Shown: piece by piece, positions 4,268 to 30,744 of the stretch
How positions within the stretch are numbered: position 1 is the stretch's first letter
Layout of the letters: the number at the start of each line of letters is the position of its first letter
From: a bacterium
Lineage (GTDB): Bacteria; Patescibacteriota; Minisyncoccia; Phycocordibacterales; CAIZLB01
Assembly (NCBI GenBank): GCA_037142735.1
Contig: JBAXAB010000001.1
Coordinates: 36,915-100,914, forward strand
Length of the DNA stretch: 64,000 bases
Reading direction: 5' to 3'
Program-made: the position numbers and the translations under genes
Notes under the pieces: model-generated
The model's database searches: none
What the model was told of the DNA's origin: nothing
Seen by the model: only the letters and a program-made list of their open reading frames with translations

Positions 4268-6694
4268 ATGAAAAAGAAGGCCTCAAAATCTGTCTCAAAA
4301 ATCTCTTCAGTCTACGACCACTTAAAAATCGAAAAAAAGTGGCAAGCTGATTGGAAAAAATCGGGAATTTACAAAACCAAAGAGGGAGGTAAAAAGCCAA
4401 AAGCCTACGTCTTGGACATGTTTCCATATCCATCTGGTTCTGGACTTCACGTTGGGCACCCAAAGGGATACATCGCAACAGACGTATTCGCTCGTTTTAA
4501 ACGCATGTCTGGATTTAATGTTTTACATCCAATGGGTTGGGATGCGTTCGGATTACCAGCAGAGGAGTTTGCTTTAAAAAACAAAATTCATCCGAGTATA
4601 GCAGTCAAGACGAATGTAAAGTGTTATAAGGACCAACTTTCAATCCTCGGTTTCTGCTATGACTGGGATCGAGAAGTAAACACCACTGATCCTGAATACT
4701 ATAAATGGACTCAATGGGCGTTTTTACAGATGCATAAAAAAGGTTTGACGTATGAATCTCACGAACCTATCAATTGGTGTCCTTCGTGTAAAACTGGTCT
4801 TGCTAATGAAGATTTAGACAATGGAAAGTGTGAACGCTGTGGTTCAATTGTCGAAAAGAAGCCGATTCGTCAGTGGGTGATTGGCATTACAAAATATGCA
4901 GATAGACTTTTAAGTGATCTGGATGCTTTAGATTGGCCAAATTCTATTAAAGAGTCTCAGAAAAATTGGATTGGTCGTAGTGAAGGATCAGAATTAACCT
5001 TTGAAATTAAAGGTGGAGAGTCCGTCAGTGTTTTTACTACGCGTCCAGATACAATTTTTGGTGTGACATATCTTGTCCTTGCACCTGAGCATCATTTGAT
5101 TGAAAAAATAAAACCACGAATTGAAAACTGGGATAAAGTTCAGTCATTCATCAAAGACGTAGCCAAAAAAACGCAGATCGAACGAACGGCTGAGGGGAAA
5201 GAAAAAACCGGTGTACATTTATCTGGAATTTCTGCTGTGAATCCTGCGAATGGTGAAAAAGTACCCGTCTGGATTGCGGATTACGTTTTAGCAGATTACG
5301 GAACAGGTGCGGTTATGGCAGTACCGGCACATGACGAACGTGATTTTGTCTTTGCTAAAAAATATAACTTACCGATTATGGCAGTAATTGGATCCGAACA
5401 TGTGTCAGACGAAAAAGCCTACACCGGCGGTGGAACTTTGATTAATTCTGGAAAGTTTAACGGAAAAGATTCAGAATCTGTGATTAAGGAAATCACCAAA
5501 TTCTGTAATGGAAAATTAGTAGTGCGCTATAAATTACGAGACTGGGTATTTTCACGTCAGAGATACTGGGGAGAGCCGATTCCACTTGTTCACTGTGCTT
5601 CATGTGGAGTGGTGCCTGTGCCTGAAAAAGAACTTCCACTAAAACTTCCTAATGTAAAATTCTACGAACCGACAGGGACTGGAGAATCTCCTTTGGCTGC
5701 AATCGACAAATGGGTCAATACTAAATGTCCACAATGTAAGGGTCCTGCAAAACGCGAGACGAATACCATGCCTCAATGGGCTGGATCATGTTGGTATTAC
5801 CTTCGATACATGGATCCGAAAAATAAAAAGATGCTCGTGGATCCTAAAAAAGAAAAGTACTGGTCACCAGTTGATGTGTACGTTGGTGGCACCGAGCACG
5901 CAACGAGACACTTGATCTATGCAAGATTTTGGCACAAGTTTTTATATGATATTGGAGTCGTTTCCCAATCAGAACCATTTACGCAATTGCGAAATCAGGG
6001 ATTGATTATGGGACCTGATGGACAAAAAATGAGCAAGCGTTTTGGAAACGTAGTAAACCCAGATGATATTGTGAAATTATATGGAGCTGACAGTCTACGT
6101 GTATACGAAATGTTTATGGGTCCATTTGAGCAAGCGATCTCATGGAGTACTGACAACATGCTTGGTTCAAGACGATTTATTGAGCGTGTTTGGAGATTGA
6201 AACAGAAAATTTCTAAAGATTCTGTTAAAAAGGATACCGAACAACTTCTACATAAGACAATTAAAAAAGTAGGACAAGACATTCAGGGTTTTTCTCACAA
6301 TACTGCCATTTCATCAATGATGATTCTCTTAAATGCCCTAGAAAGTGAGGCTTCTGTTGATAAAAAAACGTATGAAACTCTTCTTCTTATCCTCGCTCCA
6401 TTTACTCCACATATCACTGATGATTTATGGTCTCAACTAGGACACAAAAAGAGCATACATTTGGAGGTGTGGCCTACATATGATGAATCAAAATTAATCA
6501 GTGATTCATTTAAAATAATGATCCAAGTTAATGGAAAAATACGTGGGTCACTAGAGACTAATAATCCTGAGGAAGCCTTTGTAATTAAGGCTGCAAAGGA
6601 AAAACCCGAGATTAAAAAGTATCTCGATGGTAATGAAATTATCAAGGAAATTTACGTCAAAAATAAGCTTGTCAACTTCGTCGTCAAGGGGTAA
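4268..6694 (+). CDS. leuS: Leucine--tRNA ligase.
   Basis: HIGH motif (HVGHP), KMSKS (QKMSKRFGN), CP1 editing domain, ~808 aa. Confidence 0.97.
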   Translation: MKKKASKSVSKISSVYDHLKIEKKWQADWKKSGIYKTKEGGKKPKAYVLDMFPYPSGSGLHVGHPKGYIATDVFARFKRMSGFNVLHPMGWDAFGLPAEEFALKNKIHPSIAVKTNVKCYKDQLSILGFCYDWDREVNTTDPEYYKWTQWAFLQMHKKGLTYESHEPINWCPSCKTGLANEDLDNGKCERCGSIVEKKPIRQWVIGITKYADRLLSDLDALDWPNSIKESQKNWIGRSEGSELTFEIKGGESVSVFTTRPDTIFGVTYLVLAPEHHLIEKIKPRIENWDKVQSFIKDVAKKTQIERTAEGKEKTGVHLSGISAVNPANGEKVPVWIADYVLADYGTGAVMAVPAHDERDFVFAKKYNLPIMAVIGSEHVSDEKAYTGGGTLINSGKFNGKDSESVIKEITKFCNGKLVVRYKLRDWVFSRQRYWGEPIPLVHCASCGVVPVPEKELPLKLPNVKFYEPTGTGESPLAAIDKWVNTKCPQCKGPAKRETNTMPQWAGSCWYYLRYMDPKNKKMLVDPKKEKYWSPVDVYVGGTEHATRHLIYARFWHKFLYDIGVVSQSEPFTQLRNQGLIMGPDGQKMSKRFGNVVNPDDIVKLYGADSLRVYEMFMGPFEQAISWSTDNMLGSRRFIERVWRLKQKISKDSVKKDTEQLLHKTIKKVGQDIQGFSHNTAISSMMILLNALESEASVDKKTYETLLLILAPFTPHITDDLWSQLGHKKSIHLEVWPTYDESKLISDSFKIMIQVNGKIRGSLETNNPEEAFVIKAAKEKPEIKKYLDGNEIIKEIYVKNKLVNFVVKG

Positions 6695-6757
6695 CTTGAC
6701 GGTATTCCGCATTTATGCTAAAACTAATACTAATTAAACGACAAATTAGCATATAAC

Positions 6758-7810
6758 ATGGCAATAGCAAACCTTCCATTCAAACCAAAACAGGTCACCA
6801 AGAAACTTCTTTCGTCACTGCACGAAAGAGCTCGGTTGGTTATCATAAAAAGATACGGTCTTGATAAAAATTCTGAGAGAATGACGCTTGAAGGTATCGG
6901 CCAGGACTACAATATCACTCGCGAACGTGTCCGCCAGATCGAAAATGCTGCTATTGCTAATATTCGTAAATCCTCACAATTCAGAGAAGAGGCCGCTTCT
7001 TTCTTGGCTCTTGAAACATTGATCCGTGACCTTGGTTCATTAATTTCAGAAGAAGATTTATTGAATCATCTTGCGAAAGATCCTTCTACAAAGAATCATT
7101 TCCATTTCATGCTCACTGTTGGTCTAACATTTAAAAAAGAACGCGAAGACGAAGAGTTTAAACACCGATGGCACGTTGATCCTGAATTAACTAAAAGAAT
7201 TCACGAAGCACTTAGAAAACTTTACAAATCTCTTTCAAATGATGACCTTGTTCCAGAATCTGAAATGATTCAGATGTTTTTCGATAACTTAAAAGACATT
7301 AATGACAAGTACAAGAGCGATGAAGTGTCCAAACGATGGTTACGCATTTCAAAACACATTGATAAGAATCCATTGGGTGAATGGGGCAAGACAAGTTCGC
7401 CAAATGTAAAGACAAAAGGCATCAGAGACTTTGCTTTTTTGGCTATGCGAAAACATGGTTCTCCAATCCACTTCCGAGACATTGCAAAATTGATCGAAAA
7501 ACTTTTCAACAAGAAAGCGCACATCGCAACGACTCATAATGAACTGATCAAGGATAAACGATTCGTCTTAGTTGGACGAGGTTTATATGCATTGGCAGAA
7601 TGGGGATACCTCAGTGGTGTTGTAAAGGATGTTATAAAGAAAGTTCTAGACAAACACGGTCCACTTCCAAAGGATGAAATCATTCAAAAAGTTTTAAAGG
7701 AAAGATTTGTAAAAGAAAACACTATCCTCGTTAACTTACAGAACAACAAATTCTTCAAAAAGGACAAAGATGGACGTTACCACATGGTAGATTTCACTGC
7801 TACTAAATAA
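6758..7810 (+). CDS. Sigma-70 region 4 domain protein with a C-terminal HARE-HTH domain.
   Basis: N-terminal region-4.2-like GIGQDYNITRERVRQIENAAIANIRK. C-terminal HARE-HTH signature FVLVGRGLYALAEWGY. Confidence 0.8.
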   Translation: MAIANLPFKPKQVTKKLLSSLHERARLVIIKRYGLDKNSERMTLEGIGQDYNITRERVRQIENAAIANIRKSSQFREEAASFLALETLIRDLGSLISEEDLLNHLAKDPSTKNHFHFMLTVGLTFKKEREDEEFKHRWHVDPELTKRIHEALRKLYKSLSNDDLVPESEMIQMFFDNLKDINDKYKSDEVSKRWLRISKHIDKNPLGEWGKTSSPNVKTKGIRDFAFLAMRKHGSPIHFRDIAKLIEKLFNKKAHIATTHNELIKDKRFVLVGRGLYALAEWGYLSGVVKDVIKKVLDKHGPLPKDEIIQKVLKERFVKENTILVNLQNNKFFKKDKDGRYHMVDFTATK

Positions 7811-7851
7811 TCGACTAGTATTTTCATACACAGTAAGTTAAAATACTACTG

Positions 7852-9144
7852 ATGTATCTTGCTCTCATTCAATCTTCACTTGGGCCAGCTTTCACCTTTA
7901 TCTATTTGGTTGCTATTATCGCGATACCAATAGTGTTGTTTTTTGAACTTAATAAGAAATGGCAGAAATACCTACATGCTTATTATTTTAACAAACAAAC
8001 ATACACAGTTCTTGAATTAAAGATTCCAAAAAACAATACCAAATCACCACTTGCCATGGAGATTTTTCTTAATGCCCTTCAACAACCAGGAAAGGATTAC
8101 GAATGGAGAAAAAAATGGTGGACAGGAGAGGTTCGTGCCTGGTTCTCGCTAGAGATATGTTCGTTCGAAGGTAATGTACGTTTTTTTATATGGACAAAAA
8201 CAAAATATAAAGATTTACTAGAGAACCAGTTGTATTCTCAGTATCCAGATATTGAAATTAGTGACGTCGGCGCGCGTGACTATACGTACAACATACCCTT
8301 TGATGAAAGTAAGTATGAATACTGGGCTACCGAATGGAGAAAAAGAGAGCCTTCTCACTTACCTATAAAAACCTACATGGCTTTTGGACTTCAAGATGAT
8401 CCAAAAGAAGAATTTAGAATCGATCCAATTACACCACTTTTTGAATTTTTAGGATCACTGAAAAAAGGAGAACAGGTATGGTATCAAATTTGTGTCCGAG
8501 CACACGGAAAGGACAAATTTGATAAGGGAAAAGGTGCCTACGTTGACTGGAAGCACGCTGCTCAGAAGGATGTGTTGAAACTGACAAAACGAGATGCTCC
8601 TAATAAAGATGATAAATTTAATTTCATCATTTTGACCAAGGGTGAAAAACAAGCAGCGGATGCAATTGAAGACAACATTACAAAAGCAGCTTTCGATGTC
8701 GGAATTCGTGTTATCTATGCGGCAGAGAAAAGTGTATATCAAAAAAGTACCGTAGGTCGTATTAAAGCTTCGTTTAACCAGTTCAATGCCCCGAATTTGA
8801 ATAGTTTTGCTCGTGTGAATGACATTGACGATGACAAGTGGCGTTACCATTACTTACCATTCGGAAACAAGAGACTTTCTCGTCATAAAAAAAGACTTTT
8901 CGATCTTTATCGGCACCGATCGTTCTTTTATAGAGACTTTGTTCCGTATCCTCACAAAGAGGAAGAATTGATTTCGAACTTCTGGGTTTCAGATATAACA
9001 ACATGGTTTGATTCAAAAATCACCACATTCAGTGCTGAAGAGCTAGCAACTATTTACCACTTCCCAGGAGAAGTCGCAAAGACGCCAAGTGTAAACCGTG
9101 TGACTGCCAAGAAAGCCGAACCACCATCAAACTTACCTCAATAA
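7852..9144 (+). CDS. Hypothetical membrane-anchored protein (430 aa).
   Basis: N-terminal TM helix, Trp/Lys-rich, no recognisable catalytic motif. Directly downstream of the sigma-r4/HARE-HTH gene. Confidence 0.65.
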   Translation: MYLALIQSSLGPAFTFIYLVAIIAIPIVLFFELNKKWQKYLHAYYFNKQTYTVLELKIPKNNTKSPLAMEIFLNALQQPGKDYEWRKKWWTGEVRAWFSLEICSFEGNVRFFIWTKTKYKDLLENQLYSQYPDIEISDVGARDYTYNIPFDESKYEYWATEWRKREPSHLPIKTYMAFGLQDDPKEEFRIDPITPLFEFLGSLKKGEQVWYQICVRAHGKDKFDKGKGAYVDWKHAAQKDVLKLTKRDAPNKDDKFNFIILTKGEKQAADAIEDNITKAAFDVGIRVIYAAEKSVYQKSTVGRIKASFNQFNAPNLNSFARVNDIDDDKWRYHYLPFGNKRLSRHKKRLFDLYRHRSFFYRDFVPYPHKEEELISNFWVSDITTWFDSKITTFSAEELATIYHFPGEVAKTPSVNRVTAKKAEPPSNLPQ

Positions 9145-9160
9145 TTTTAATTCATATCTA

Positions 9161-10159
9161 ATGAGAATCTTTAAAGAACATATATTTGTAATCTACTCGG
9201 TACTTCTAGCAGTGTTGATATTGGTAGTTGGAATAGCTGCTAAAATATTTATACCAGTTGAAATCCCACGGGACGGATCAGTGATTGTACATATTGATAA
9301 AGGGCAAAGCCTTATTAGTATTTCACATGAATTAGAAAAAGAGCAGATCATTGATTCTCCATTCCTTTTCCGCCTGATTATTACATTGCGTGGAAGTGAA
9401 AACAGTATCCCAGCTGGTTATTACTTATTCTCAGATGACAGCGGCCAATCTGGTAGAAGTCGTTACAGTCTAAGTGCAATTGCCAGGCGCTTAGCTCAAG
9501 GAGAAATGGGTTTTAGGCCACAGAAAATTACCATACCAGAAGGGTTGAACGTTATTGACATTGGAAATAAGGTACACCAAGAATTTCCAGCCATTGACGC
9601 ATTAGAGTTTGCGAGCTCTGCTAAGCCTTATGAAGGATACCTTTTCCCAGATACGTACCTCTTTATGCCTTATGCAACATCTGGTGAAATTATACATAAA
9701 ATGAGGGATACCTTTGAACAAAAAGTGACTGATAATCCTTTATTCGCTGAGGCAATCGCAAGTTCTACACACTCATTTGCAGATATTATAAAAATGGCCT
9801 CAATTCTAGAAGGAGAAGTGAGAACTTTAGAGGATCGCAAAATTGTATCCGATTTGCTATGGCGCAGAATAAAAAAAGGCATGCCATTACAAGTCGATTC
9901 TACTTTTAAGTATATAAATCAAAAAACATCTGCTCAACTAACTTTAGGCGACTTAAAAATTGACTCTCTCTACAATACCTACAAATATAAAGGTTTGCCT
10001 CCGACACCAATTTCAAATCCAGGCCTTGAAACATTATTTGCGGCGGCAGAACCGACTCCAAATCAATATGTATTCTTTTTAAATGATAAGGATGGAATAA
10101 GTCATTTCGCTAAAACATTTGCAGAGCACATTCGTTACAAAAACCAATATTTGAAATAG
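9161..10159 (+). CDS. mltG: Endolytic murein transglycosylase MltG (YceG family).
   Basis: N-terminal TM, YEGYLFPDTY and GLPPTPISNPG motifs typical of YceG/MltG. Confidence 0.9.
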   Translation: MRIFKEHIFVIYSVLLAVLILVVGIAAKIFIPVEIPRDGSVIVHIDKGQSLISISHELEKEQIIDSPFLFRLIITLRGSENSIPAGYYLFSDDSGQSGRSRYSLSAIARRLAQGEMGFRPQKITIPEGLNVIDIGNKVHQEFPAIDALEFASSAKPYEGYLFPDTYLFMPYATSGEIIHKMRDTFEQKVTDNPLFAEAIASSTHSFADIIKMASILEGEVRTLEDRKIVSDLLWRRIKKGMPLQVDSTFKYINQKTSAQLTLGDLKIDSLYNTYKYKGLPPTPISNPGLETLFAAAEPTPNQYVFFLNDKDGISHFAKTFAEHIRYKNQYLK

Positions 10160-10202
10160 CCTGGAAATGGCATCGAGCCATTAAATGGTGTAGTATCCTT
10201 GG

Positions 10203-11282
10203 ATGATTGGAAAGTCTAAAAAGGTCTGGGTAGGAATGTCGGGCGGGGTCGACTCGTCTGTTTCAGCGTACCTTTTAAAGCAACAAGGTTACGACGTAAC
10301 CGGTGTTTTTATAAAAGTTTGGCAACCAAACGATGTTGAATGTACCTGGAAAGACGAACGACGAGACGCCATGCGAGTCTGCGCAGAGCTGGATATTCCT
10401 TTTTTAACTCTTGACCTAAGCGTTGAATATAAAATGCAGGTAGTTGACTATATGATCAGTGAATATGCCAAAGGGCGCACTCCAAATCCGGACATTATGT
10501 GTAATCGTCACATTAAATTTGGCGGTTTTCTAGATATGGCCAAAAGAATGGACATTGATTATGTAGCCACTGGTCACTATGCAAATGTTAAAAAAACTGA
10601 TGACGGCTATTTTTCATTATTTGAAGGAAAGGATCCATCCAAAGATCAAAGTTACTTTTTATGGACTCTTAATTCAGATGATTTGTCCAGAGTGCTTTTT
10701 CCTGTTGGACACTTGCTCAAAACGGAAGTGCGTAAGATTGCTCAAAAGGCAAAATTACCAGTTTTTGACAAAAAAGACAGCCAGGGAATTTGTTTCATTG
10801 GCCATGTTGATATGAAAGAATTCCTAAAGAAAAATATAGAGACCAGATCTGGATCTGTTCTTGATATTGATGGAAATGTAATAGGGGAACACGATGGTGC
10901 AATTCTATACACAATAGGAGAACGTGTTGGATTTAAGGCTTTTAAAACTGGCGCAGACGACAAAGCGATGTATATTCTAAGTAAAGACGTTTCAAATAAT
11001 ACTATCACCGTCATAGAAAATAATCTTTTAACCGTTGAAGGTTCTGAACACAATCAAGGCATAAGGATTGCCCAGCTAGCCGACGTTAACTGGAACACTG
11101 AAAAGACAAATACTGTCAGCAATTTAAAGGCTAGAGTTAGATACAGACAAGAAAAACAGGACTGTATTTTTGACCCAAATACGAGCAGGGTGACATTTTC
11201 TAAAGCGCAGGTCCTAGCAAGCGGACAATCCGTCGTTTTGTACAGTGGCGAAAGGTGCCTAGGTGGTGGTATTATAAGCTAA
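10203..11282 (+). CDS. mnmA: tRNA-specific 2-thiouridylase MnmA.
   Basis: PP-loop SGGVDSS, catalytic Cys motifs, C-terminal beta-barrel region. Confidence 0.93.
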   Translation: MIGKSKKVWVGMSGGVDSSVSAYLLKQQGYDVTGVFIKVWQPNDVECTWKDERRDAMRVCAELDIPFLTLDLSVEYKMQVVDYMISEYAKGRTPNPDIMCNRHIKFGGFLDMAKRMDIDYVATGHYANVKKTDDGYFSLFEGKDPSKDQSYFLWTLNSDDLSRVLFPVGHLLKTEVRKIAQKAKLPVFDKKDSQGICFIGHVDMKEFLKKNIETRSGSVLDIDGNVIGEHDGAILYTIGERVGFKAFKTGADDKAMYILSKDVSNNTITVIENNLLTVEGSEHNQGIRIAQLADVNWNTEKTNTVSNLKARVRYRQEKQDCIFDPNTSRVTFSKAQVLASGQSVVLYSGERCLGGGIIS

Positions 11283-11284: not shown

Positions 11285-12154
11285 ATGTTTCAGGAAGTTT
11301 TATTAGTAAAGACTGACGGCACCAAAGAGGTTTATGAACCTCATAAATTAAGAAATTCTCTCATTAAAGCTGGTGCCGGTGGTCATTCGGCTGATAAAGT
11401 TCTGACCGAAGTTTCAAATTATCTAGAAGAACATCTGAAAGGCAAAAAGAAATCTGAGGTAACGGTTTCCGAATTATACAAACTAGCTTTTGAATGTCTC
11501 AAAAAATATGCGGGGGATGCGGCGTTGCGATATTCACTTAAGAGGTCTCTTTTTGAACTTGGCCCGACCGGTTTTCCTTTTGAAAAATATATCGCTGAAA
11601 TTTTCAAGACTCAGGGTTTTGAAACCTTAACTGGCCAAATGGTGATGGGTAGCTGTGTTCCTCACGAGGTAGATCTAGTGGCGTGGAACGCTGATAAATT
11701 AATTATGGGTGAAGTAAAATATCACAACGATCCTGCTTCAAAGACAGATTTAAAAGTCGCCCTTTACGTAAGTGCGCGTTATAACGATATAAAACAAAAC
11801 ATGTTTGATTACGGCGGCACACCTCGTAAATTGGCCGAGTGGTACTTAATTACAAATACAAAGTTTACGGACACTGCGATCACCTATGCTGTGTGTAACG
11901 GAGTCAAATTATTAAGCTGGGTGTATCCAGAGACTGGAAATTTGCATGACATGATTGAAGACACCAAATCGCACCCGATTACATGTCTAAGCGCTCTTGA
12001 TGCAAGCCAAAAGAAGATGTTGATAGACAAAAATGTGATCCTTTGTCGACAGTTACATTCAAATACCGCCATTATGAAAGAACTTCACTTCAGCGAAGAG
12101 ACTATTTTTAACGTTCTAGAAGAAACAAATAAAATTATTACCACAAAAAAATAA
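11285..12154 (+). CDS. ATP-cone domain fused to an Mrr-like restriction-endonuclease (PD-(D/E)xK) domain.
   Basis: N-terminus LVKTDGTKEVYEPHKLRNSLIKAG..RYSLKR fits the ATP-cone consensus. C-terminus EVDLVAW..GEVKYH is an Mrr_cat-type D..E.K core. Start taken at MFQE, directly after the mnmA stop. Confidence 0.75.
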   Translation: MFQEVLLVKTDGTKEVYEPHKLRNSLIKAGAGGHSADKVLTEVSNYLEEHLKGKKKSEVTVSELYKLAFECLKKYAGDAALRYSLKRSLFELGPTGFPFEKYIAEIFKTQGFETLTGQMVMGSCVPHEVDLVAWNADKLIMGEVKYHNDPASKTDLKVALYVSARYNDIKQNMFDYGGTPRKLAEWYLITNTKFTDTAITYAVCNGVKLLSWVYPETGNLHDMIEDTKSHPITCLSALDASQKKMLIDKNVILCRQLHSNTAIMKELHFSEETIFNVLEETNKIITTKK

Positions 12155-12158
12155 GATT

Positions 12159-12956
12159 ATGGCTTTTATTCCGTACAAAAAGAAATTATATATTCCAGAC
12201 AGTACCGAACCCTTCAAATTAAGCCGCTCGAAGATCGACATGTTTCTTGAATGTGCCCGTTGCTTTTATTTAGACCGTAGAATTGGGGTCTCTCGACCTG
12301 ATAGCTTTCCTTTTAATCTCAACAGTGCTGTTGATCATCTCTTAAAAAAAGAATTTGATATCCATCGTAGTGCAAAGACGGCGCACCCCCTCATGGTGAG
12401 TTACAAAATTGATGCGGTACCTTTTATCCACAAAGATCTAGATGTCTGGAGAGAAAATTTTGTCGGAGTGCAATATTTGGATAAGAAAAATAACTTTATC
12501 ATCTTTGGCGCTGTGGATGATGTATGGGTGAATAAAATGGGTGAATTGATTGTAGTCGACTATAAATCAACCAGCAAAGACACCGAAGTAAACCTTGATG
12601 CAGACTGGCAAATCGCCTACAAACGCCAAATGGAGGTGTACCAGTGGCTATTGGAGAAGAATGACCACAAAGTATCTACTACGGGTTATTTCGTGTATGC
12701 CAATGCCACCAAAGCTCGTGATTCCTTCGAAGCTCGCCTTGAATTTGAAATGACAGTAATACCATATACAGGCGATAATTCATGGATAGAAGAGACACTT
12801 GTTTCAATTAAAAAATGCCTTGACGGAAATGACATACCAAAAGAATCAGCTACGTGTAAATATTGCGAATACAGGACAAAAGCAGGCAATGCTTTTAAAG
12901 ATCATGTTCAAAAATATGGAGCAGTAAAGGCAGCCAGTCCTAAGAAAAAGAAATGA
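12159..12956 (+). CDS. PD-(D/E)xK nuclease, Cas4/RecB-like, with Cys cluster.
   Basis: N-terminal LSRSKIDMFLECARCFYL (Cas4/Dna2-like Cys), VVDYKS (D-x-K), QxxxY (EVYQWL), C-terminal CKYCEY cysteines. Confidence 0.7.
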   Translation: MAFIPYKKKLYIPDSTEPFKLSRSKIDMFLECARCFYLDRRIGVSRPDSFPFNLNSAVDHLLKKEFDIHRSAKTAHPLMVSYKIDAVPFIHKDLDVWRENFVGVQYLDKKNNFIIFGAVDDVWVNKMGELIVVDYKSTSKDTEVNLDADWQIAYKRQMEVYQWLLEKNDHKVSTTGYFVYANATKARDSFEARLEFEMTVIPYTGDNSWIEETLVSIKKCLDGNDIPKESATCKYCEYRTKAGNAFKDHVQKYGAVKAASPKKKK

Positions 12957-14743
12957 AAAAGCCTGCGTACAAAACTGAATGGGACTTTGCAAACTTATTT
13001 TACAAAAAAAGCATTAAGGACCCTTTAATAGAAATTGATGTAGCTGCTGCTGAAAACATGTGTGTGGGTTTTGAAAAAAAATACACCAACAATCAAGAAT
13101 ACTTACATGACGTAGCTACACTTAAAACAGCGTTGGACGATTACGAAATATTATTAGCAGGGGTGATGTCTTCAAAGCCACTTTTTTATTTGCAGATGCT
13201 CCTTGCTGTTGATAGTCAAAACAATGCGGCCCAAGCCAAGATGAACCTTCTGAGCAGTCGCCTTACTGCCGCATTCAATAAAATTATTTTCTTTGAACTA
13301 CGATTGGGTAAAGTCTCCGAGTCACAACAGAATAAGTTTTTACAGGCCACGGAATTAAAGAAATATAAATACCTACTAGACAGACTATTTTTAACTGCAA
13401 AATATCAATTATCTGAACCTGAGGAAAAGATTTTAAACTTAAAATATCCCTCTTCTCGAGGGATGTGGAATGACTATTCTGAAAAACTCCTCAATGCGCA
13501 AACGCTTGTGTGGAAAGGTAAGAATCTACCATTGCCAGAAGCGACAAACATGATCCGTAGCCTTCCAAAAAAAGAACGTCATGCTCTGCACACCCTTCTT
13601 TGTCAGAAACTTCAAGAGATCAGTTTTTTTGCTGAGGCCGAGATGACTGCCATCTTGACCGATAAAAAAACTACCGATGAATTAAAAGGTTTCAAAAAGC
13701 CTTACGAATCATGGATCATTGGTAATCAAAATTCAATAGCAAGTATCGAAAATCTTGTGACAACGATTACAAAAAATTTTAATATCAGCCACAAATTTCA
13801 TGCTTTACAAGCAAAACTACTGAAAGAAAAAACCTTATCTTACCCGGATCGGGCTGTGGGTATTAGCAAAAAAGTTACACCATTCGCTTTTGAAGAAGGG
13901 GTATCTCTTTTTACTTCAGCATTGAAAAAAACTGATCCGATGTTTGCTGAAATTTTCCAGAAGCTTTTAAAAAATGGCCAGGTTGATGTTTACCCCAGAA
14001 AAGGTAAAGGCGGCGGAGCATTCTGTTCGTCTTCAATAAATCAACCGACGATGATTATGCTAAATAACACTCCAAACGTTGATTCATTTTTTACTCTTGC
14101 TCATGAGATGGGGCACGCTTTTCACGGAGAATTATCCAAAACTCAAAGTCCAATGTACCAAGATTACACCATTTCTGTAGCCGAAGTAGCCAGCACTTTC
14201 TTTGAAAATATTGCAGTTGAAGCCATTAGTGCAAAACTCACTGACAAGGAAAGAGTTGAATTAGAATTCCAGCGCTTACAAGATGACATCGGTACAATTT
14301 TTCGCCAAGTAGCATGTTTTAATTACGAAATAGAAATTCATAATGAAGTTAGGAGTAAGGGATCAATTACCAAAGAAAGGTTAGCGGATCTGCATAATCA
14401 GCATATGTCCAAATACCTAGGCCCACTATATAAGATGAAGGATGTTGATGGGTATATGTTCGTACAATGGACTCATATTAGACACTTTTTCTATGTTTAC
14501 ACTTATGCTTACGGCCAGATAATCAGTAAAGCTTTATATGCTCGATATAAAAAAGACCCGACGTTTATACATTCCATCATCAAGTTTCTTTCAGCTGGAG
14601 GCAGTATGTCACCTGACGATATTTTTAAATCAATTGGCATAGATACGACACAGCCAGAATTTTTTCTTGACGGACTACGAGAAGTTGAATCTAGTATAAA
14701 AAGAATTGAAATAATGGCCAAAAAACTTGGAATGATAAAGTAG
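12953..14743 (+). CDS. pepF: Oligoendopeptidase F (M3B metallopeptidase).
   Basis: HEMGHAFH zinc motif, ~596 aa, M3B family. Confidence 0.9.
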   Translation: MKKPAYKTEWDFANLFYKKSIKDPLIEIDVAAAENMCVGFEKKYTNNQEYLHDVATLKTALDDYEILLAGVMSSKPLFYLQMLLAVDSQNNAAQAKMNLLSSRLTAAFNKIIFFELRLGKVSESQQNKFLQATELKKYKYLLDRLFLTAKYQLSEPEEKILNLKYPSSRGMWNDYSEKLLNAQTLVWKGKNLPLPEATNMIRSLPKKERHALHTLLCQKLQEISFFAEAEMTAILTDKKTTDELKGFKKPYESWIIGNQNSIASIENLVTTITKNFNISHKFHALQAKLLKEKTLSYPDRAVGISKKVTPFAFEEGVSLFTSALKKTDPMFAEIFQKLLKNGQVDVYPRKGKGGGAFCSSSINQPTMIMLNNTPNVDSFFTLAHEMGHAFHGELSKTQSPMYQDYTISVAEVASTFFENIAVEAISAKLTDKERVELEFQRLQDDIGTIFRQVACFNYEIEIHNEVRSKGSITKERLADLHNQHMSKYLGPLYKMKDVDGYMFVQWTHIRHFFYVYTYAYGQIISKALYARYKKDPTFIHSIIKFLSAGGSMSPDDIFKSIGIDTTQPEFFLDGLREVESSIKRIEIMAKKLGMIK

Positions 14744-14749: not shown

Positions 14750-15919
14750 TTATTTATTTTCGTAGACTGCTACAGTTTTCTTGACCATTCGATCGAGTGA
14801 AAAGTTTTCAGCAATTCTCTTTTTAAAATTATCTGTCTGGAGTCGCACATCAAATTCTGAATTTAACGTCATGCGTAGTGCCAAAGCGAAAGCTTTTTTA
14901 TCTCTTGGGGCAATTAAAATACCACACGGATTGTGTTCGGTCGTGAGGACTGTTTCTGGAATTCCACCCACATTTGAGGCGATAACAGGGACCTCCGCCA
15001 TTCCAGCTTCAATAATAACGTAACCGAATGCTTCAGAGAAAGAGGGAAGCACAAACACGTCAAAGGCCTTCAGCAACCGAGGAGCTTCGTCCACAAACCC
15101 TGTCAGAAACACATGGGCCTGCAAACCTCTCTCTGTAATAAACTTAGCCAGATCTGTTTTAAGCTCTCCTTCACCAATGATCACATATCTAGTATCAATC
15201 TCTGGGTTCGTTTTCATTAAAATATCTACTGCCTCGATAGAACTATAGAGATTCTTCACAGGATGAAGTTCTGCAAGTGTGCCTATCCATTTTGTAGTTG
15301 GTGAAAAATTAAATTGAGCCTGAGAGTTTTTTTCTACCTCTAGGATTGTTGAAATTTTATTCTGAGCGTCCTCACGTGAATAAAAATCAATGGCCGGGCT
15401 CGCTGGATGAATAACTTTGATTTTATTTTTTACAAACGGCATCCACATGACTTGATTTTTTACAGACTCTGAAACGGCGATAGTTTTATGGTTCAGCACA
15501 ATAGTCAGCCAATGAAGGCAACCGATAATAAACTGCTGCACGTGCGAACGATTTTCATTAAAAGCCCATGCATGAGCGGTAAATACCACTCTTTTGACCC
15601 ATAACAAACGAGCAATGAAGGCGCCAATGCCTCCTGCTTTCGAACTATTCACATGCACTACATCCGGTCGTACTTTCCAAATAATTCTACCTAGCGTGAA
15701 GAAAGTCTTAATTTCGTCTTTGAAACTAATATCTCTTTTCATTGAGCCAACATTAAAAACATTAATACCAGCATTTTTTAGTTTTTCAGACAATAAACCA
15801 TTTCCACCCAACACCACCGAAACGTCGTGACCTTGGGAGGACAAGCTGGTCGCAAGATCATAAACATATCTTTGTGCACCACCCCAGTTTGATTTTGTAA
15901 TGACATACAGAATTTTCAT
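14750..15919 (-). CDS. Glycosyltransferase family 4 (GT-B).
   Basis: N-terminal MKILYVITKSNWGGAQRYVYDLA, C-terminal EAFGYVIIEAGMAEVPVIASNVGGIPE. Confidence 0.9.
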   Translation of the reverse strand: MKILYVITKSNWGGAQRYVYDLATSLSSQGHDVSVVLGGNGLLSEKLKNAGINVFNVGSMKRDISFKDEIKTFFTLGRIIWKVRPDVVHVNSSKAGGIGAFIARLLWVKRVVFTAHAWAFNENRSHVQQFIIGCLHWLTIVLNHKTIAVSESVKNQVMWMPFVKNKIKVIHPASPAIDFYSREDAQNKISTILEVEKNSQAQFNFSPTTKWIGTLAELHPVKNLYSSIEAVDILMKTNPEIDTRYVIIGEGELKTDLAKFITERGLQAHVFLTGFVDEAPRLLKAFDVFVLPSFSEAFGYVIIEAGMAEVPVIASNVGGIPETVLTTEHNPCGILIAPRDKKAFALALRMTLNSEFDVRLQTDNFKKRIAENFSLDRMVKKTVAVYENK

Positions 15920-15952
15920 ACGTTTAGTCAGTTTAACTTAAAATGTGACAAT

Positions 15953-17347
15953 GTGGAATTAGTTGTAATGAGGCCTTTTTGGCTGTACTATAATACTAAT
16001 ATGAAAGTTGCGAATAAGCGAGAACCTTTTCTCCTTTTGATCGGGGATATTGCATGTCTTACTTTATCTCTTTGGTTAATGCTGTACTTGCGTGCATTTA
16101 ATATTCCTTCACTTGCCGTTTTTACAGCCCACCTGGCACCATTCGGTATTCTTTTTCTGGCTTCATTGGTTGTGTACTATATCTCTGGTTTATACGAAAA
16201 ACATAACAGTATTCTGCGCTCTCGCCTGGCATCAGTAATTATAAAGGCTCAGATCGCAAACAGTTTAGTTGCAATTGCTTTCTTTTACTTTGTTCCATAT
16301 TTTGGCATCACACCGAAAACAAACCTTTTCTTGTACTTACTTATTTCCATAATTATCATCACATTATGGCGACTCATTTTCTATCCATTCTTTTTGCCTG
16401 GCAAAAAACGTCGTGCAGTTATTATTGGATCTGGTACAGAAATGGAAGATATTATTCGTGAAGTAAACAATGATCCACATTATGACTTCCAATTGTCACG
16501 AATTATTGATCTAACTGAGACAGACAAGGCCACTATTCCGGATATTATTAAACAAGAAGTAATGGATAATGATGTTTCGATGATAGTGATCGACCTCGAT
16601 CACGCTAAAATCAAAGACGTATCACCAAAATTATTTGATTTAATTTTTATGAATGTAGATTTTGTCCCAATGTATAGCGTATACGAACACGTGTTCTACC
16701 GTATTCCATATTCAGCTTTAAAGCATGATTGGTTTATTGAAAATATCTCTTCTCGAGCTAAAGGCAGCTATTCGTTTGGTAAGCGCGTAATCGACATTAC
16801 ACTGGCGGGAATTGCCTTCATAATTTCTCTAATATTTTATCCACTAATTTGGATCGCCATCAAGATTCAAGACGGGGGGCCACTTTTCGTCTATCAAGAA
16901 AGACTCGGGCAGGGTAATAAGAAATTTATGATTAGAAAGTTTAGAAGTATGCGCGCAGCCAAGCATGATGATGGGGCTTGGGTGGGAAAAGACGATATGA
17001 GAATAACAACACTTGGTCGCATTATGCGAAAAACCAGCATTGATGAACTTCCTCAATTATGGAGCGTTCTGAAAGGAGACTTGTCCCTCATAGGCCCACG
17101 TCCTGACTTGTATGATCGAGGAATAGAACTGTCTCAACAAATTCCTTACTACAATATAAGAAACCTTTTAAAACCAGGACTGTCTGGTTGGGCACAGGTT
17201 AGTCAGGCACTACCACCGCAATCATTAGAAGAGACTAAGCTCCGCCTTGCATATGACATTTATTATGTAAAAAATAAATCATTGTTCATGGACTTTGTCA
17301 TTGTGCTTCGCACCATTCGATCCCTCTTTTTGCGTTTAAAGCAATAA
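15953..17347 (+). CDS. Polyprenyl glycosylphosphotransferase (WbaP/CpsE-type sugar transferase).
   Basis: Multi-TM N-terminus. C-terminal bacterial sugar-transferase domain (KRVIDITLAGIAFII..GPLFVYQERLG..MIRKFRSM..GDLSLIGPRP). True start may be the MKVANK ATG at 16001. Confidence 0.88.
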   Translation: MELVVMRPFWLYYNTNMKVANKREPFLLLIGDIACLTLSLWLMLYLRAFNIPSLAVFTAHLAPFGILFLASLVVYYISGLYEKHNSILRSRLASVIIKAQIANSLVAIAFFYFVPYFGITPKTNLFLYLLISIIIITLWRLIFYPFFLPGKKRRAVIIGSGTEMEDIIREVNNDPHYDFQLSRIIDLTETDKATIPDIIKQEVMDNDVSMIVIDLDHAKIKDVSPKLFDLIFMNVDFVPMYSVYEHVFYRIPYSALKHDWFIENISSRAKGSYSFGKRVIDITLAGIAFIISLIFYPLIWIAIKIQDGGPLFVYQERLGQGNKKFMIRKFRSMRAAKHDDGAWVGKDDMRITTLGRIMRKTSIDELPQLWSVLKGDLSLIGPRPDLYDRGIELSQQIPYYNIRNLLKPGLSGWAQVSQALPPQSLEETKLRLAYDIYYVKNKSLFMDFVIVLRTIRSLFLRLKQ

Positions 17348-17384
17348 CCATTTATAATCTGTACACAAATTTAACCAATAACAC

Positions 17385-18458
17385 ATGAAGCTATTTATTA
17401 CCGGAGGAGCAGGATACGTCGGGGCAATGTTGGCAGATCAGTTCAGCGGGCGGGCAGATGTTGAAAAGATTTTATTGGTAGACAAAGAAGCAGAGCCACA
17501 GTTACTAAAGAACAATCCCAATTATTCAAAAATTCAATTTATTCAAAGCAATCTTGGAGATACAAACTGGCAGGATCAGGTTCGTGCATTTACACCTGAT
17601 GTCGTCATTCACACTGCGTGGCAAATTCGTGAAATGTTTGGCAAAAAAGAATTACAGTGGAAATGGAATGTGACAGGCTCTGATAATGTCTTCGATGTCG
17701 CCTTTGAATTAACTTCTGTGAAGAAACTGATTTATTTCTCTACTGTTTCAAGTTACGGAGCATTTTCAGACAACCAACTTGATCACTTTATAAAAGAAGA
17801 AGAGCCTTTTCGTGAAAACACTTATTTATACGGTGTTGAAAAAAAGGAAGTTGAGGTGCATCTCCATAAAAAATATGAAGAGGCCAAGAAAGCTGGAACA
17901 CATGTGCCCCAGATCTTCATTGTACGACCCGCAGCAATCACTGGAACACGTGGACGCTACATGCGCGTACGATTTGGTCTCCAGGCGGCCCTTTCTGGTC
18001 AATTAAAGGGTAATTTTGTGTACAGAATGATCTCATTCATGGTTTCTTTTGTGCCGGCAACTAAAAAATGGTGTCGACAATTTATTCATGAAGATGATGT
18101 GTGTAATATTGTGGAATTATTTACTTTTACTGAACTGAAGGGAGACTACGAGGTTTTTAACATCTGTCCACCTGGCCAAATCGTGACTGCTACTGATATG
18201 GCCAAAGCCGTGGGTAAAAAACCAATCTTTTTGCCTCCATGGTTAATTCGTATTGTTTTTGCCTTTATGTGGAATGTATTCCGGGGAAGAGTGCCGACTT
18301 CAAAGGGTGGCTGGAAATTCTATTCATATCCAGTTGCAGTTGATGGTTCAAAACTGACGAAACAATATGGTTATCAATACAAATACAATTCTTTAGATGC
18401 GTTTACTAAAAGGGAGGGCAGATATTCTAAATATACAGAATCTGAGACTAAGTTATAA
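17385..18458 (+). CDS. NAD-dependent epimerase/dehydratase (SDR family).
   Basis: [20 protein letters not shown] Rossmann motif and the YxxxK region. Confidence 0.85.
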
Positions 18459-18860: not shown

Positions 18861-18996
18861 GTGACTTACTTTCTAAACTTTGCGATGGATACACCTTTGA
18901 TGAACTTATTCTGTGGAGCAGTATAATACCTTTTGTTAAAAAAGTCAATATTTTGAATCTTTCTGCCACGATTGCTTTATGTTAATATCAAACGCA

Positions 18997-29634: not shown

Positions 29635-30744
29635 ATGACTAATACTGTGCTCATCATTCTAGCCTTAATCGTAATTATATTCAACGTAATTTTTGTGTTC
29701 TGGCAGAGTCGAAAAAAAGAGGGAGGAGTTGATGTGACCTCCATATTGACCCAATCAACAGCGCAATCAGCTGCTCAAAATGCCAGCCTTCAAATGCTCA
29801 CCCAGCAGTTAAATGAACTTTCACGTACTGTTGATGGAAAAATGGGGGACACATCTAGAATGGTTCAAGAATCTTTTCGTAACCAGGCGAATGAGTCTTT
29901 TAAAGTAATTAAGGATATCACCGAGCGTCTAACCAAATTAGACGAGACAAACAAACAAGTAGTCTCTTTTGCCGATCAACTGCAATCTTTACAGGATGTA
30001 TTGAAGAATCCAAAACAGAGAGGAATTCTTGGTGAATACTTTTTGGAGACGTTGTTAAAGAACGTTCTGCCTTCAGGTTCGTTCCAAATGCAATATCCAT
30101 TTAAAGATGGAACGATTGTGGACGCAGTGGTATTTGTGAAGGATAAAGTTATACCTATTGATTCCAAATTCAGTTTGGAAAATTATAATCGATTATCAGA
30201 AGAGCGGGATCCGGTCGAGCGTGAAAAATTAGAAAAGGCTTTTCGTAATGACCTTAAAAATCGCATTGATGAAACCAGCAAATATATCAAACCGGATGAA
30301 GGAACCATGGAATTCGCATTTATGTTCATCCCTCACGAAGCGATCTATTATGAACTGCTAATTGCTCAAATCGGATCAGTTAAAGTAAACACCCGAGACC
30401 TCATCGAATACGCCTTTAAGGAAAAACATGTGTGCATTGTGTCACCAACCTCATTCTTAGCATTCCTGCAGACAGTTCTACAGGGATTAAAAGCTCTCCA
30501 AATTGAAGAATCCGCAAAAGACATCAGAAAGCGAGTAGGGGAATTGGGCAAGCATTTGTCGGCGTATGATCAGTATATGAAATCTTTAGGTAAGTCTCTT
30601 GGAACTTCTGTTAGTCATTACAACAAGGCTGACCTTGAACTAAGGAAGATTGATAAGGATGTTTTTCGCATCACCGAAAAGGAAGTATCCATTGGGATTG
30701 AGCCACTTATTCTAGAAAAGCCGAATGAGGATGAGGAAGTTTAA
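29635..30744 (+). CDS. rmuC: DNA recombination protein RmuC.
   Basis: N-terminal TM, long coiled coil, C-terminal RmuC nuclease-like domain (VDAVVFVKDKVIPIDSKFSL..FAFMFIPHEAIYYEL). Confidence 0.88.
   Translation: MTNTVLIILALIVIIFNVIFVFWQSRKKEGGVDVTSILTQSTAQSAAQNASLQMLTQQLNELSRTVDGKMGDTSRMVQESFRNQANESFKVIKDITERLTKLDETNKQVVSFADQLQSLQDVLKNPKQRGILGEYFLETLLKNVLPSGSFQMQYPFKDGTIVDAVVFVKDKVIPIDSKFSLENYNRLSEERDPVEREKLEKAFRNDLKNRIDETSKYIKPDEGTMEFAFMFIPHEAIYYELLIAQIGSVKVNTRDLIEYAFKEKHVCIVSPTSFLAFLQTVLQGLKALQIEESAKDIRKRVGELGKHLSAYDQYMKSLGKSLGTSVSHYNKADLELRKIDKDVFRITEKEVSIGIEPLILEKPNEDEEV

Follow-up and report, generated by a model that had tools for sequence, protein, structure and literature searches.

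ATP-cones have so far been understood almost wholly from ribonucleotide reductases (RNRs) and NrdR, where the domain gates activity through nucleotide-dependent oligomerisation and where a basic residue placed after the first lysine contacts phosphates. The RecB family of nucleases, for its part, is recognised by a motif set composed of D, D/E-x-K and Q-x-x-x-Y. The relative against which the first gene of our locus is best compared, AF1548, was predicted to be restriction-endonuclease-like in the 2007 GOS work (PMC1821046), with its D, E and K predicted as catalytic; the same three residues are found in G1, the gene described below. No functional study of any ATP-cone nuclease or AF1548 relative was found in the searchable literature.

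Herein, we describe a locus where an ATP-cone is fused to an intact nuclease. It lies in a 64,000-nucleotide stretch of DNA from a small-genomed bacterium of the Patescibacteria (CPR; Parcubacteria/Paceibacteria-like), analysed over its whole length and hereafter called the window, and consists of two nuclease genes, G1 and G2, which occupy positions 11285-12956 and are separated by 4 nt. The initial annotation had the coordinates and the structure of this pair right, and went on to suggest that the two genes could form a compact module for defence or DNA processing. Our best reading of the whole is another one, and we would give it an even chance of being correct: G1 and G2 are separate core genes, G1 being an adenylate-gated nuclease for nucleotide recycling and G2 being independently engaged in DNA-end processing.

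Layout of the locus

The genes and their parts are as follows, with positions given within the window.

4268..11282, + strand: upstream housekeeping block composed of leuS, a Sigma70_r4/HARE-HTH protein, DUF8128, mltG (YceG) and mnmA (Pfam)
11285..12154, + strand: G1, ATP-cone with AF1548-like PD-(D/E)xK nuclease and helical C-terminal domain, 289 aa
11306..11530, + strand: ATP-cone of G1, residues 8-82 (about 5-92 in the model), PF03477 with E 3.6e-8
11570..11914, + strand: PD-(D/E)xK core of G1, residues 96-210, Mrr_cat 20.4 bits
11666-11674, + strand: codons of the putative catalytic E128 and D130 of G1
11711-11719, + strand: codons of the putative catalytic E143-x-K145 of G1
11975..12139, + strand: AF1548-like helical C-terminal domain of G1, residues 231-285, PF22357 with a sub-threshold E of 0.0028
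12159..12956, + strand: G2, stand-alone RecB/Cas4-family nuclease, 265 aa, four invariant cysteines
12252..12263, + strand: N-terminal C32-x-x-C35 of G2, invariant in 20 homologs
12516..12641, + strand: G2 motifs D120, D134-Y-K136 and Q157-x-x-x-Y161, invariant in 20 homologs
12855..12866, + strand: C-terminal C233-x-x-C236 of G2, invariant in 20 homologs
12953..14743, + strand: pepF-like M3 oligoendopeptidase, with a 4-nt overlap at the G2 stop
18979-20844: alaS, end of the syntenic run that holds pepF

Both genes are intact, and the ORF and start of G1 agree with a database protein of 289 aa at 100% identity. Genes are tightly packed along the local order leuS ... mltG-mnmA-G1-G2-pepF ... 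alaS: the mnmA stop codon (TAA, 11280-11282) is followed by the G1 ATG at 11285, the G1 stop codon (TAA, 12152-12154) by a GATT spacer and the G2 ATG at 12159, and the G2 stop shares positions 12953-12956 with the pepF start. The 4-nt gap between G1 and G2 is unexceptional, given that the neighbouring junctions of the same co-directional run measure 2 nt and -4 nt. CPR genes are as a rule closely spaced and co-directional, and two nucleases side by side do not amount to a defence module. A promoter and terminator scan revealed no terminator-like + strand site in the intergenic gaps from leuS to pepF; thus, G1 and G2 are probably co-transcribed with their neighbours. Promoter-like sites of the same scan occurred at chance level only, and an Rfam scan of the window for riboswitches or other RNAs near the genes gave zero matches.

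Gene calls and Pfam showed housekeeping genes only in the window. A CRISPR context was considered and rejected, as nothing CRISPR-like emerged when the entire window was scanned for tandem and direct repeats; the same applies to a restriction-modification context, with no DNA methyltransferase among the Pfam-annotated called genes across the window. No cas genes were present among its called genes or in related loci. In this respect, the initial annotation, which had reported neither methyltransferase nor cas genes nor a CRISPR array, was accurate. A mobile or phage origin was also rejected, since a tblastn search of 50,697 phage records returned no homologs of either G1 or G2.

Domains and active sites of G1 and G2

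The ATP-cone that the initial annotation had read from the letters of G1 is borne out by Pfam (34.3 bits against a gathering cutoff of 25.8) and by structure. In the model, the cone superposes on the four-helix and beta-hairpin fold of the NrdR cones 9fxk, 9fvr and 9gex at Foldseek E values of about 1e-4, with an rmsd of about 2.9 A over about 88 columns. In RNR and NrdR cones, the nucleotide is contacted by a K-R...E...K-I/L set and by basic residues of the last helix. Across 26 homologs of G1, there is no variation at K9, G12, E15, K21, L22, Y83, S84 and L85 and hardly any at R87, and the position after K9 is taken by T, E or A, not by R. As the basic residue after K9 is not conserved, the ligand of G1 may not be ATP or dATP.

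Residues 102-285 of G1 align with AF1548 (PDB 1Y88) at E 3.9e-24 in phmmer. The AlphaFold (AF2) model of G1, with a pLDDT of 90.5, matches the same structure with a Foldseek E value of 1e-13 and a TM score of 0.80, the C-terminal domain being aligned to 1Y88 residues of about 140-196. The nuclease domain had initially been described as Mrr-type. Its PD-(D/E)xK fold and the retained D, E and K stand, but the score of Mrr_cat remains short of the Pfam gathering cutoff of 21; as 133 of 150 family representatives match Mrr_cat at E<=1e-3, the relationship is best regarded as borderline and clan-level.

D130, E143 and K145 are invariant in the 26 homologs, in the 150 family representatives and in AF1548, and H127/E128 are nearly invariant. 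Judging from the sequence, the active site of G1 is intact and has the residue pattern expected of an active nuclease. It is against this background that one has to weigh another reading, in which G1 would be a non-enzymatic, NrdR-like nucleotide-responsive regulator whose nuclease fold and helical tail bind DNA. An ATP-cone joined to a nucleic-acid-binding module is indeed the NrdR design, the N-terminal domain of G1 is matched best in structure by NrdR, and some sources label homologs as 'NrdR family'. However, inactivated PD-(D/E)xK folds normally lose their catalytic residues, and a catalytic triad kept this strictly over 150 divergent representatives argues against such a regulator, as does the absence of nrd genes from the window. 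We find it very improbable.

The AF1548-like nuclease family to which G1 belongs comprises 825 representatives at 50% clustering (E<=1e-3), and the homolog searches yielded thousands of 90%-identity clusters. The coupling of this nuclease to a predicted ATP/dATP-sensing cone, already recognised in the initial annotation, proved to be the dominant architecture, found in 119 of 150 diverse representatives taken at 50% clustering; 71 of the 150 have the AF1548-like C-terminal domain.

For G2, the PDDEXK_1 domain (PF12705) is confirmed at E 2.6e-13, and the Pfam model Cas_Cas4 scores 26.2 bits against a cutoff of 22.7. The NCBIfam cas4 equivalog TIGR00372 is missed by far, with 36.7 bits against a cutoff of 65. 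The earlier description of G2 as Cas4/RecB-like is right as to the family; G2 is Cas4-like at the superfamily level only. Its AF2 model (pLDDT 85.6) is matched in Foldseek by the AdnA nuclease domain, MGME1, lambda exonuclease, RecE, Cas4 SSO0001 and Exo5. As for the cysteines, first described as one at the N-terminus and a CxxC pair at the C-terminus, the C-terminal pair was seen correctly, but the N-terminus likewise carries a CxxC pair; a third cysteine, spaced as in canonical Cas4, is missing from the C-terminus. By the precedent of Cas4 and AddB, the four cysteines would cluster in space. Overall, G2 is most likely an independent 4-Cys RecB/Cas4-family exonuclease acting in DNA-end processing or repair. 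It is often accompanied by a family 4 uracil-DNA glycosylase (UDG) and an ATL/MGMT-like gene.

Gene order in related Patescibacteria

We compared gene order in 80 related Patescibacteria genomes, with 72 loci scored for mnmA and 71 for G2. The order of the upstream block is kept in most of the 80 genomes: mnmA is the immediate upstream neighbour of G1 in 52/72 loci and is within the flank in 67/72, and pepF and alaS recur downstream. The position of G2 is far less constant. It adjoins G1 in 12/71 loci, and another 14 have it inside 6 kb (26/71 in total), leaving 45/71 in which it is absent within that distance. Adjacency was seen in 8 of 24 loci where G1 identity is at least 46% and in 2 of 30 where it is below 43%. 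Unrelated genes, those for DUF7282 and MgtC among them, in some cases separate the two, as happened in locus L168, and locus L170 has G2 without G1. Outside the CPR, none of 80 loci with full-length G1 homologs had a Cas4-like neighbour. On the other hand, G2, where present near G1 in CPR loci, is always downstream and on the same strand, and when the view is centred on G2, G1 lies within two genes in 3/4 sampled loci, so that some weak functional link is possible.

Among the first three ORFs after G1 in CPR loci, UDG family 4 occurs in 31, G2 in 25 and ATL/MGMT in 7; a YfbR-like HD 5'-deoxynucleotidase is found directly 3' of G1 in 9 loci. The recurrent CPR neighbours of G1 (UDG family 4, the ATL/MGMT-like gene and G2) are DNA-repair genes and fit a repair role of G1 equally well.

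In our best reading, then, G1 and G2 are two core genes, each inherited vertically and neither part of a joint system, and their proximity results from lineage-specific gene order. The region being a frozen housekeeping block, proximity within it says little about function. The initial annotation had named a lack of co-conservation in other genomes as an outcome that would speak against its two-gene module, and the counts given above for CPR and non-CPR loci show that the pair is largely not co-conserved.

The same counts weigh on the idea that G1 and G2 make up a compact nucleotide-sensing anti-phage module, restriction-like or of the abortive-infection kind, triggered by perturbed (d)NTP pools. 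Defence systems commonly join a sensor domain to a PD-(D/E)xK effector, and the nuclease domain of G1 bears a weak resemblance to the CARF nucleases Can2, Cdn1 and Card1 (Foldseek E from 3e-4 to 1e-2). Card1_endonuc was found in 3 of 150 G1 relatives, a Pontibacter homolog of G1 matches the PADLOC model CARF_PDDEXK at E 1e-4, and two non-CPR homologs are carried on plasmids. Checking the pair with PADLOC, as the initial annotation had suggested, gave matches of G2 to Cas4 models only (E about 1e-10), with no partner genes; no model of PADLOC-DB 2.0 matches G1, and zero families were assigned to the operon partners of its non-CPR homologs. Against defence there also stand the lack of homologs among the phage records searched, the window devoid of methyltransferase, cas genes and CRISPR array, and the setting itself, which is a conserved, vertically inherited housekeeping block of very high sequence conservation, not a variable island. 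On balance, a defence role is not supported, and we consider it improbable.

Homologs outside the CPR and a proposed role in nucleotide recycling

A plasmid search yielded only two distant G1 homologs, in Criblamydia and Pontibacter. Both plasmids share one gene order: the G1 homolog, a metallo-beta-lactamase-fold gene (MBL), a gene of the 'thymidine phosphorylase family' (TP) and a PRPP synthetase gene (PRS). The MBL partner has Beta-Casp and RMMBL domains. The TP partner, about 500 aa long and of archaeal type, scores above the TIGR02645 cutoff and reaches 480 bits with the AMP_phos model, below its equivalog cutoff of 535; the PRS partner matches PRK07199. In metagenomes, a beta-CASP gene was adjacent to the G1 homolog in 30 and nearby in 5 of 60 loci with sufficient downstream sequence, and among 40 loci with at least 5 kb downstream, TP was present in 14 and PRS in 13. 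Genes for universal stress proteins (Usp) occur in 25 metagenome loci, and those for Hsp20, P-type ATPase and D-2-hydroxyacid dehydrogenase are also met there. The MBL-PRS-TP trio of Bradyrhizobium, bll3115-3117, is listed as induced in microoxia in a proteomics table (PMC6515984).

Such operons are the reason for the recycling role that we propose: outside the CPR, G1 homologs head a gene set of a beta-CASP hydrolase of RNase type and of AMP-phosphorylase-like and PRPP-synthetase-like enzymes, placed within Usp/Hsp20 stress clusters. In the CPR, the YfbR-like 5'-deoxynucleotidase that adjoins G1 in 9 loci counts in favour of the same role. They also bear on the repair role mentioned above, in which G1 would be a structure-specific, Hjc/Mrr-like DNA endonuclease, tied by its cone to the supply of dNTP or ATP and sharing one repair pathway with G2 (resection), UDG family 4 and ATL, all of them in a compact CPR repair cluster. 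Its strength lies in the CPR neighbourhood, with UDG family 4, G2 and ATL/MGMT soon after G1 and with the constant downstream, same-strand placement of G2, and in the presence of G1 within two genes in three of the four G2-centred loci; the weak Hjc and UPF0102 similarities of G1 and the resemblance of G2 to the resection nucleases AdnA, lambda exonuclease, RecE and Exo5 point the same way. Yet the non-CPR partners are stress proteins, an RNA-type beta-CASP nuclease and NMP-phosphorylase-like and PRPP-synthetase-like enzymes, repair genes being absent from among them, and within the CPR the G1-G2 adjacency becomes rarer in more divergent genomes and is broken by unrelated genes, in a frozen block where proximity has little functional information. 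A repair role seems to us doubtful, though it deserves to be kept in mind.

In the recycling role that we favour, the ATP-cone of G1 would bind ATP and/or dATP, and this binding would bring G1 into another oligomeric or conformational state, as it does with RNR and NrdR. Through such a change, the nuclease activity is proposed to track the adenylate or dNTP pool; the helical tail may bind nucleic acid, and the cleavage products would feed nucleotide recycling. The domain architecture, the intact catalytic residues, the synteny counts and the operon context outside the CPR are observed; that G1 binds nucleotides, in which direction it is gated, whether it cuts RNA or DNA and that it serves salvage are inferred. 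In the CPR, neither TP nor PRS was found near G1 in any of 80 loci and beta-CASP was found in 1 of 80, and the window holds none of these salvage partners; the role is thus transferred from homologs that are only 36-41% identical. CPR bacteria are commonly regarded as lacking de novo nucleotide synthesis and as reliant on salvage, and we propose on this ground that G1 would be a constitutive housekeeping enzyme there.

Taken further, this leads to a tentative scenario, which we put forward as a possibility and not as the expected outcome. ATP-cone nucleases might be a regulated, adenylate-switched entry into a bacterial route in which nucleic acid, probably RNA, is broken down to NMPs, and these are turned into ribose-bisphosphate or PRPP. 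In free-living Bacteroidota and Chlamydiota, it would be arranged as an operon for survival of stress or hypoxia, together with the beta-CASP RNase, the two AMP-phosphorylase-like and PRPP-synthetase-like enzymes and Usp; in the CPR, the nuclease would be kept as a constitutive core enzyme. If true, no ATP-cone before this one would have been shown to control a nuclease in place of ribonucleotide reduction. A cone that gates cleavage would couple nucleic-acid turnover to energy or dNTP state in a simple manner, and such coupling would bear on the physiology of dormancy and hypoxia in free-living bacteria, as well as on the nucleotide supply of ultra-small CPR symbionts. Family members occur in cultured hosts (Pontibacter, for example P. 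actiniarum with WP_237151220, Sporocytophaga, Flavobacterium and Criblamydia), which makes the hypothesis directly testable.

Comparison with known systems

Cas4 and the RecB-family nuclease domains of AddB, AdnA, Exo5 and lambda exonuclease share with G2 the RecB motifs, as well as a set of cysteines of which some lie near the N-terminus and the others near the C-terminus. These cysteines are differently arranged, however, as C...CxxCx5C, ligating an Fe-S cluster, in Cas4 and as CxxC...CxxC in G2, which has no cas1, cas2 or CRISPR array nearby and no fused helicase.

As for the putative pathway, the non-CPR operons of G1 homologs resemble archaeal NMP degradation (the pentose bisphosphate pathway, headed by AMP phosphorylase) in that an AMP-phosphorylase-like enzyme is followed by a PRPP-synthetase-family enzyme; neither R15P isomerase nor RuBisCO turned up in the operon loci.

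Among nucleases, AF1548 and G1 have a homologous core with the same D...ExK and a C-terminal helical domain, but the alignment starts at about residue 23 of the crystal chain of AF1548 (199 aa), which is without the ATP-cone that G1 has. Mrr (type IV) endonucleases have a catalytic fold of the same Mrr_cat Pfam family. In Mrr, this fold is preceded by the Mrr_N winged-helix, while G1 begins with an ATP-cone and is unmatched by Mrr_N; unlike Mrr, G1 has no restriction context, being a core gene with fixed synteny. G1 would work like the type III CRISPR effectors Can2, Card1 and Cdn1, in which a nucleotide-sensing domain at the N-terminus controls a C-terminal PD-(D/E)xK nuclease. Their sensor is CARF and that of G1 would be an ATP-cone; in contrast to CARF effectors, G1 is found in a setting of housekeeping or stress metabolism, with neither a cyclic-oligoadenylate synthase nor a CRISPR context.

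Finally, the cones of RNR and NrdR and that of G1 are the same domain by Pfam and by structure, with a common K-x-x-G...E...K-L core. Directly after the first lysine, the RNR and NrdR cones have a basic residue that is not conserved among G1 and its homologs, and the output domain is another one in each case: a reductase in RNR (class I and III), a Zn-ribbon DNA binder in NrdR and a nuclease in G1.

Genomic setting and gene order of G1 and G2

The two adjacent nuclease genes reported in the initial annotation were confirmed as complete ORFs encoding proteins with nuclease-family domains. Identical (100%), equal-length database entries exist for both, named 'ATP cone domain-containing protein' (G1) and 'PD-(D/E)XK nuclease family protein' (G2).

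11285-12154, + strand: G1, complete ORF, 289 aa
12159-12956, + strand: G2, complete ORF, 265 aa

Both genes belong to a single long run of + strand genes that begins with leuS and continues to pepF. The G1 ATG lies 2 nt after the mnmA stop codon (end at 11282), the G1 stop TAA (12152-12154) is followed by GATT and then the G2 ATG, while the G2 stop overlaps the pepF start by 4 nt. Since the gaps along this run are 63, 41, 16, 43, 2, 4 and -4 nt, the 4-nt spacing between G1 and G2 is the local norm and no sign of pairing. No + strand terminator-like site was found inside any intergenic gap of the run. Pfam annotation of gene calls (~1.3-64 kb of the window) yielded tRNA synthetases, ribosomal proteins, RpoA, cell-wall genes, DnaB, RecR, ScpAB and the like. 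As noted initially, there was neither a DNA methyltransferase nor cas genes among these calls, and repeat scans of the window gave no CRISPR array; across the whole window, Rfam at the gathering threshold returned no RNA gene. Several other genes deserve mention.

~1320-2290, - strand: RhuM + Fic domain gene, 322 aa, just upstream of the housekeeping block
6758-7810, + strand: Sigma70_r4 protein with a faint HARE-HTH match, 350 aa
7852-9144, + strand: DUF8128 protein, 430 aa
18979-20844, + strand: short alaS, 621 aa, tRNA-synt_2c and tRNA_SAD only
29635-30744, + strand: RmuC homolog
42439-44181, + strand: Pif1-family helicase with a C-terminal HTH_40 domain

The RhuM/Fic gene possibly encodes a Fic/Doc-type toxin or AMPylase. 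The Sigma70_r4/HARE-HTH gene (protein identity up to 91% among related Patescibacteria loci) and the DUF8128 gene lie in the leuS-mltG interval in most of the loci that cover this flank among 80 related ones, and look like uncharacterised core genes of the lineage. A similarly short alaS (593-631 aa) occurs in related loci, and the gene stands at the point where the conserved syntenic block ends. In the window, inserted glycosyltransferase, sugar-transferase and epimerase genes (14750-18458) lie between pepF and alaS. In one related genome (L170, 1-1491), a NUDIX domain is inserted into leuS (979 aa). In three 2-kb bins (38001-40000, 46001-48000 and 58001-60000), GC reaches 0.46-0.48 (background ~0.39), and several of the ORFs there lack a Pfam match.

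With each species represented by one genome, a scan gave at least 597 loci with G1 relatives, of which the best 80 (39-84% identity) were sampled, all from Patescibacteria (CPR) of the Parcubacteria/Paceibacteria type. The order leuS, Sigma70_r4/HARE-HTH gene, DUF8128 gene, mltG, mnmA, G1 was kept almost everywhere; of the 72 loci whose sequence reaches far enough, 52 have mnmA as the immediate upstream neighbour of G1 and 67 have it somewhere in the flank. G2 behaved differently: among 71 loci it was adjacent to G1 in 12, stood more distantly downstream (same strand) in 14 and was missing from 45, 37 of which offer 5 kb or more of sequence downstream. Direct adjacency fell from 8/24 loci at G1 identity of at least 46% to 2/30 below 43%, which fits neutral erosion of gene order; the presence of G2 within 6 kb of G1 showed no parallel fall (10/24 vs 12/30). 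When four long contigs were viewed from G2, G1 lay zero to two genes upstream in three (in one contig, DUF7282 and MgtC genes sit between them), and in one G2 came straight after mnmA, without G1. From these counts and contigs we conclude that G1 and G2 share a syntenic block that is slowly eroding and are not an obligate pair, so that the two-gene module suggested initially is not supported.

The commonest products of the first three ORFs after G1 were UDG family 4 (31 loci), G2 (25), AlaS (25) and MgtC (15), followed by a YfbR-like HD 5'-deoxynucleotidase (11), DUF7282 (10), PepF and an ATL/MGMT-like protein (7). The recurrent CPR neighbours of G1 are DNA-repair genes, and for this reason a role of G1 in repair, although we consider it rather unlikely, stays a serious rival to the reading proposed below. 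The YfbR-like gene, which in a subset of Paceibacteria immediately follows G1 (or G2/ATL), represents a second, weaker link of the block to nucleotide turnover.

L006 (CPR locus with a G1 relative) 6837-7442, and 10 other CPR loci: YfbR-like HD 5'-deoxynucleotidase
L167 (CPR locus centred on G2) 7086-7748: YfbR-like HD 5'-deoxynucleotidase

Domains and folds of the two proteins

The initial description of G1 as an ATP-cone fused to an Mrr-type nuclease held for the cone (residues 8-82, E 3.6e-8, above the gathering score), whereas Mrr_cat (residues 96-210) fell slightly short of its cutoff (20.4 vs 21 bits); a weak AF1548-like_C match covers residues 231-285. The best anchor is the A. fulgidus AF1548 structure 1Y88 (E 3.9e-24, residues 102-285). 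An AlphaFold model built with 26 homologs as input (mean pLDDT 90.5) likewise retrieved 1Y88 as the top Foldseek hit (E 1e-13, TM 0.80 on the target), followed by several NrdR ATP-cones (E ~1e-4), while the CARF-nucleases Cdn1 and Can2 were weaker matches. The PD-(D/E)xK residues E128, D130, E143 and K145 are invariant in 26/26 CPR homologs, in Bacteroidota and Chlamydiota homologs and in AF1548, whose D, E and K were predicted to be catalytic in 2007 (PMC1821046). Over 150 representatives spanning the family as a whole, the same D, E and K stay invariant. Among the 26 CPR homologs, the invariant cone residues are K9, G12, E15, K21, L22 and the Y-S-L motif of the last helix; these homologs do not conserve the basic residue that RNR and NrdR cones have after the first lysine.

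G2 had been called Cas4/RecB-like. Its RecB-family character stood, with PDDEXK_1 at E 2.6e-13 and D120, D134-x-K136 and Q157-xxx-Y161 invariant in 20 homologs; Cas_Cas4 was slightly above the Pfam cutoff, but the NCBIfam cas4 equivalog score was far short (36.7 vs 65 needed). Four cysteines, C32-xx-C35 ... C233-xx-C236, are invariant in the same homologs, so that the C-terminal pair described initially is real, while the supposed single N-terminal cysteine is a CxxC pair too. This pattern differs from the canonical one of Cas4/AddB. The G2 model (pLDDT 85.6) folds like the mycobacterial AdnA nuclease domain, MGME1, lambda exonuclease, RecE, Cas4 SSO0001 and Exo5; the structures that this predicted fold resembles are the DNA-end-processing branch of the superfamily. 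The Pif1-family helicase and RmuC, both DNA-metabolism genes, could be partners for a stand-alone RecB-like nuclease such as G2.

The G1 family outside Patescibacteria

At E<=1e-3, a query with the nuclease and tail of G1 retrieved 825 representatives of clusters formed at 50% identity; with E<=1e-10 as the limit, 618 remained. Among the 150 best, Mrr_cat was matched in 133, AF1548-like_C in 71 and the ATP-cone in 119 (domain matches at E<=1e-3); hence, the cone fusion is the normal state of the family and cone-less AF1548 a minority form. Named homologs occur in cultured Pontibacter, Sporocytophaga, Flavobacterium and Cyclobacterium, and our literature search found no functional study of any member.

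A plasmid search revealed full-length homologs, 36-37% identical and with all three G1 domains, in Criblamydia sequanensis and Pontibacter actiniarum. Both plasmids share one operon order: G1 homolog, MBL-fold hydrolase, 'thymidine phosphorylase family' protein (~500 aa) and ribose-phosphate pyrophosphokinase.

Criblamydia plasmid (L083) 7995-12602: ATP-cone nuclease operon
Pontibacter plasmid (L084) 1972-6597: ATP-cone nuclease operon

The hydrolase carries Beta-Casp and RMMBL domains, the latter being an RNA-specificity domain. The phosphorylase is of the archaeal-type group (TIGR02645 above cutoff; AMP phosphorylase model below cutoff, 480 vs 535 bits), and the kinase is a PRPP synthetase of the PRK07199 type. 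The Criblamydia operon is accompanied by a P-type ATPase, phosphoketolase, glgP and acetate kinase. Among 80 metagenome loci nearest the Pontibacter protein, the beta-CASP gene adjoins the G1 homolog in 30 of the 60 with at least 1.5 kb downstream and is nearby in 5 more; the phosphorylase occurs in 14 and the kinase in 13 of the 40 with at least 5 kb downstream. Tandem-Usp genes are found in 25 loci, and Hsp20, P-type ATPase, D-2-hydroxyacid dehydrogenase and AAA_28/dNK-like kinase genes recur. Neither mnmA nor a Cas4-like gene appeared in any of these 80 non-CPR loci, which again speaks against a conserved pair. Often flanked by tandem Usp, Hsp20, P-type ATPase and dehydrogenase genes, the nuclease/beta-CASP/phosphorylase/PRPP synthetase operon resembles a hypoxia or dormancy cluster, and it appears undescribed as a unit. 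In Bradyrhizobium diazoefficiens, a trio of MBL, PRPP-synthetase-like and phosphorylase genes is induced under microoxia at both protein and transcript level (PMC6515984).

Proposed roles and known counterparts

G1 and G2 are highly conserved and hold a fixed place in a housekeeping block; no phage homologs were found for either, and defence-system models matched neither G1 nor its operon partners. The defence role suggested initially is therefore not upheld. Across two or more other phyla, the only partners that return beside G1-family genes are enzymes that degrade RNA or recycle nucleotides and ribose phosphates, and they lie in stress clusters. Together with the unconserved pair, this evidence leads us to propose that G1 may be a nuclease gated by adenylates or dNTPs whose products supply nucleotide recycling, and that G2 would be a RecB-family end-processing nuclease, independent of G1. 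For G1, we infer the binding of nucleotides as well as the substrate and the sign of regulation. The weak point of the recycling reading lies in CPR genomes, where G1 shows no linkage to the recycling partners.

The G1 and G2 of the window are ordinary members of two large families, and the idea of a nucleotide-gated nuclease is plausible for the whole G1 family, whose members in cultured bacteria deserve experimental work. This uncharacterised family would combine two known principles, ATP-cone allostery and the sensor-gated nuclease. We suppose that G1 might work like Can2 and Card1, ligand-gated PD-(D/E)xK effectors, with an ATP-cone as its sensor instead.
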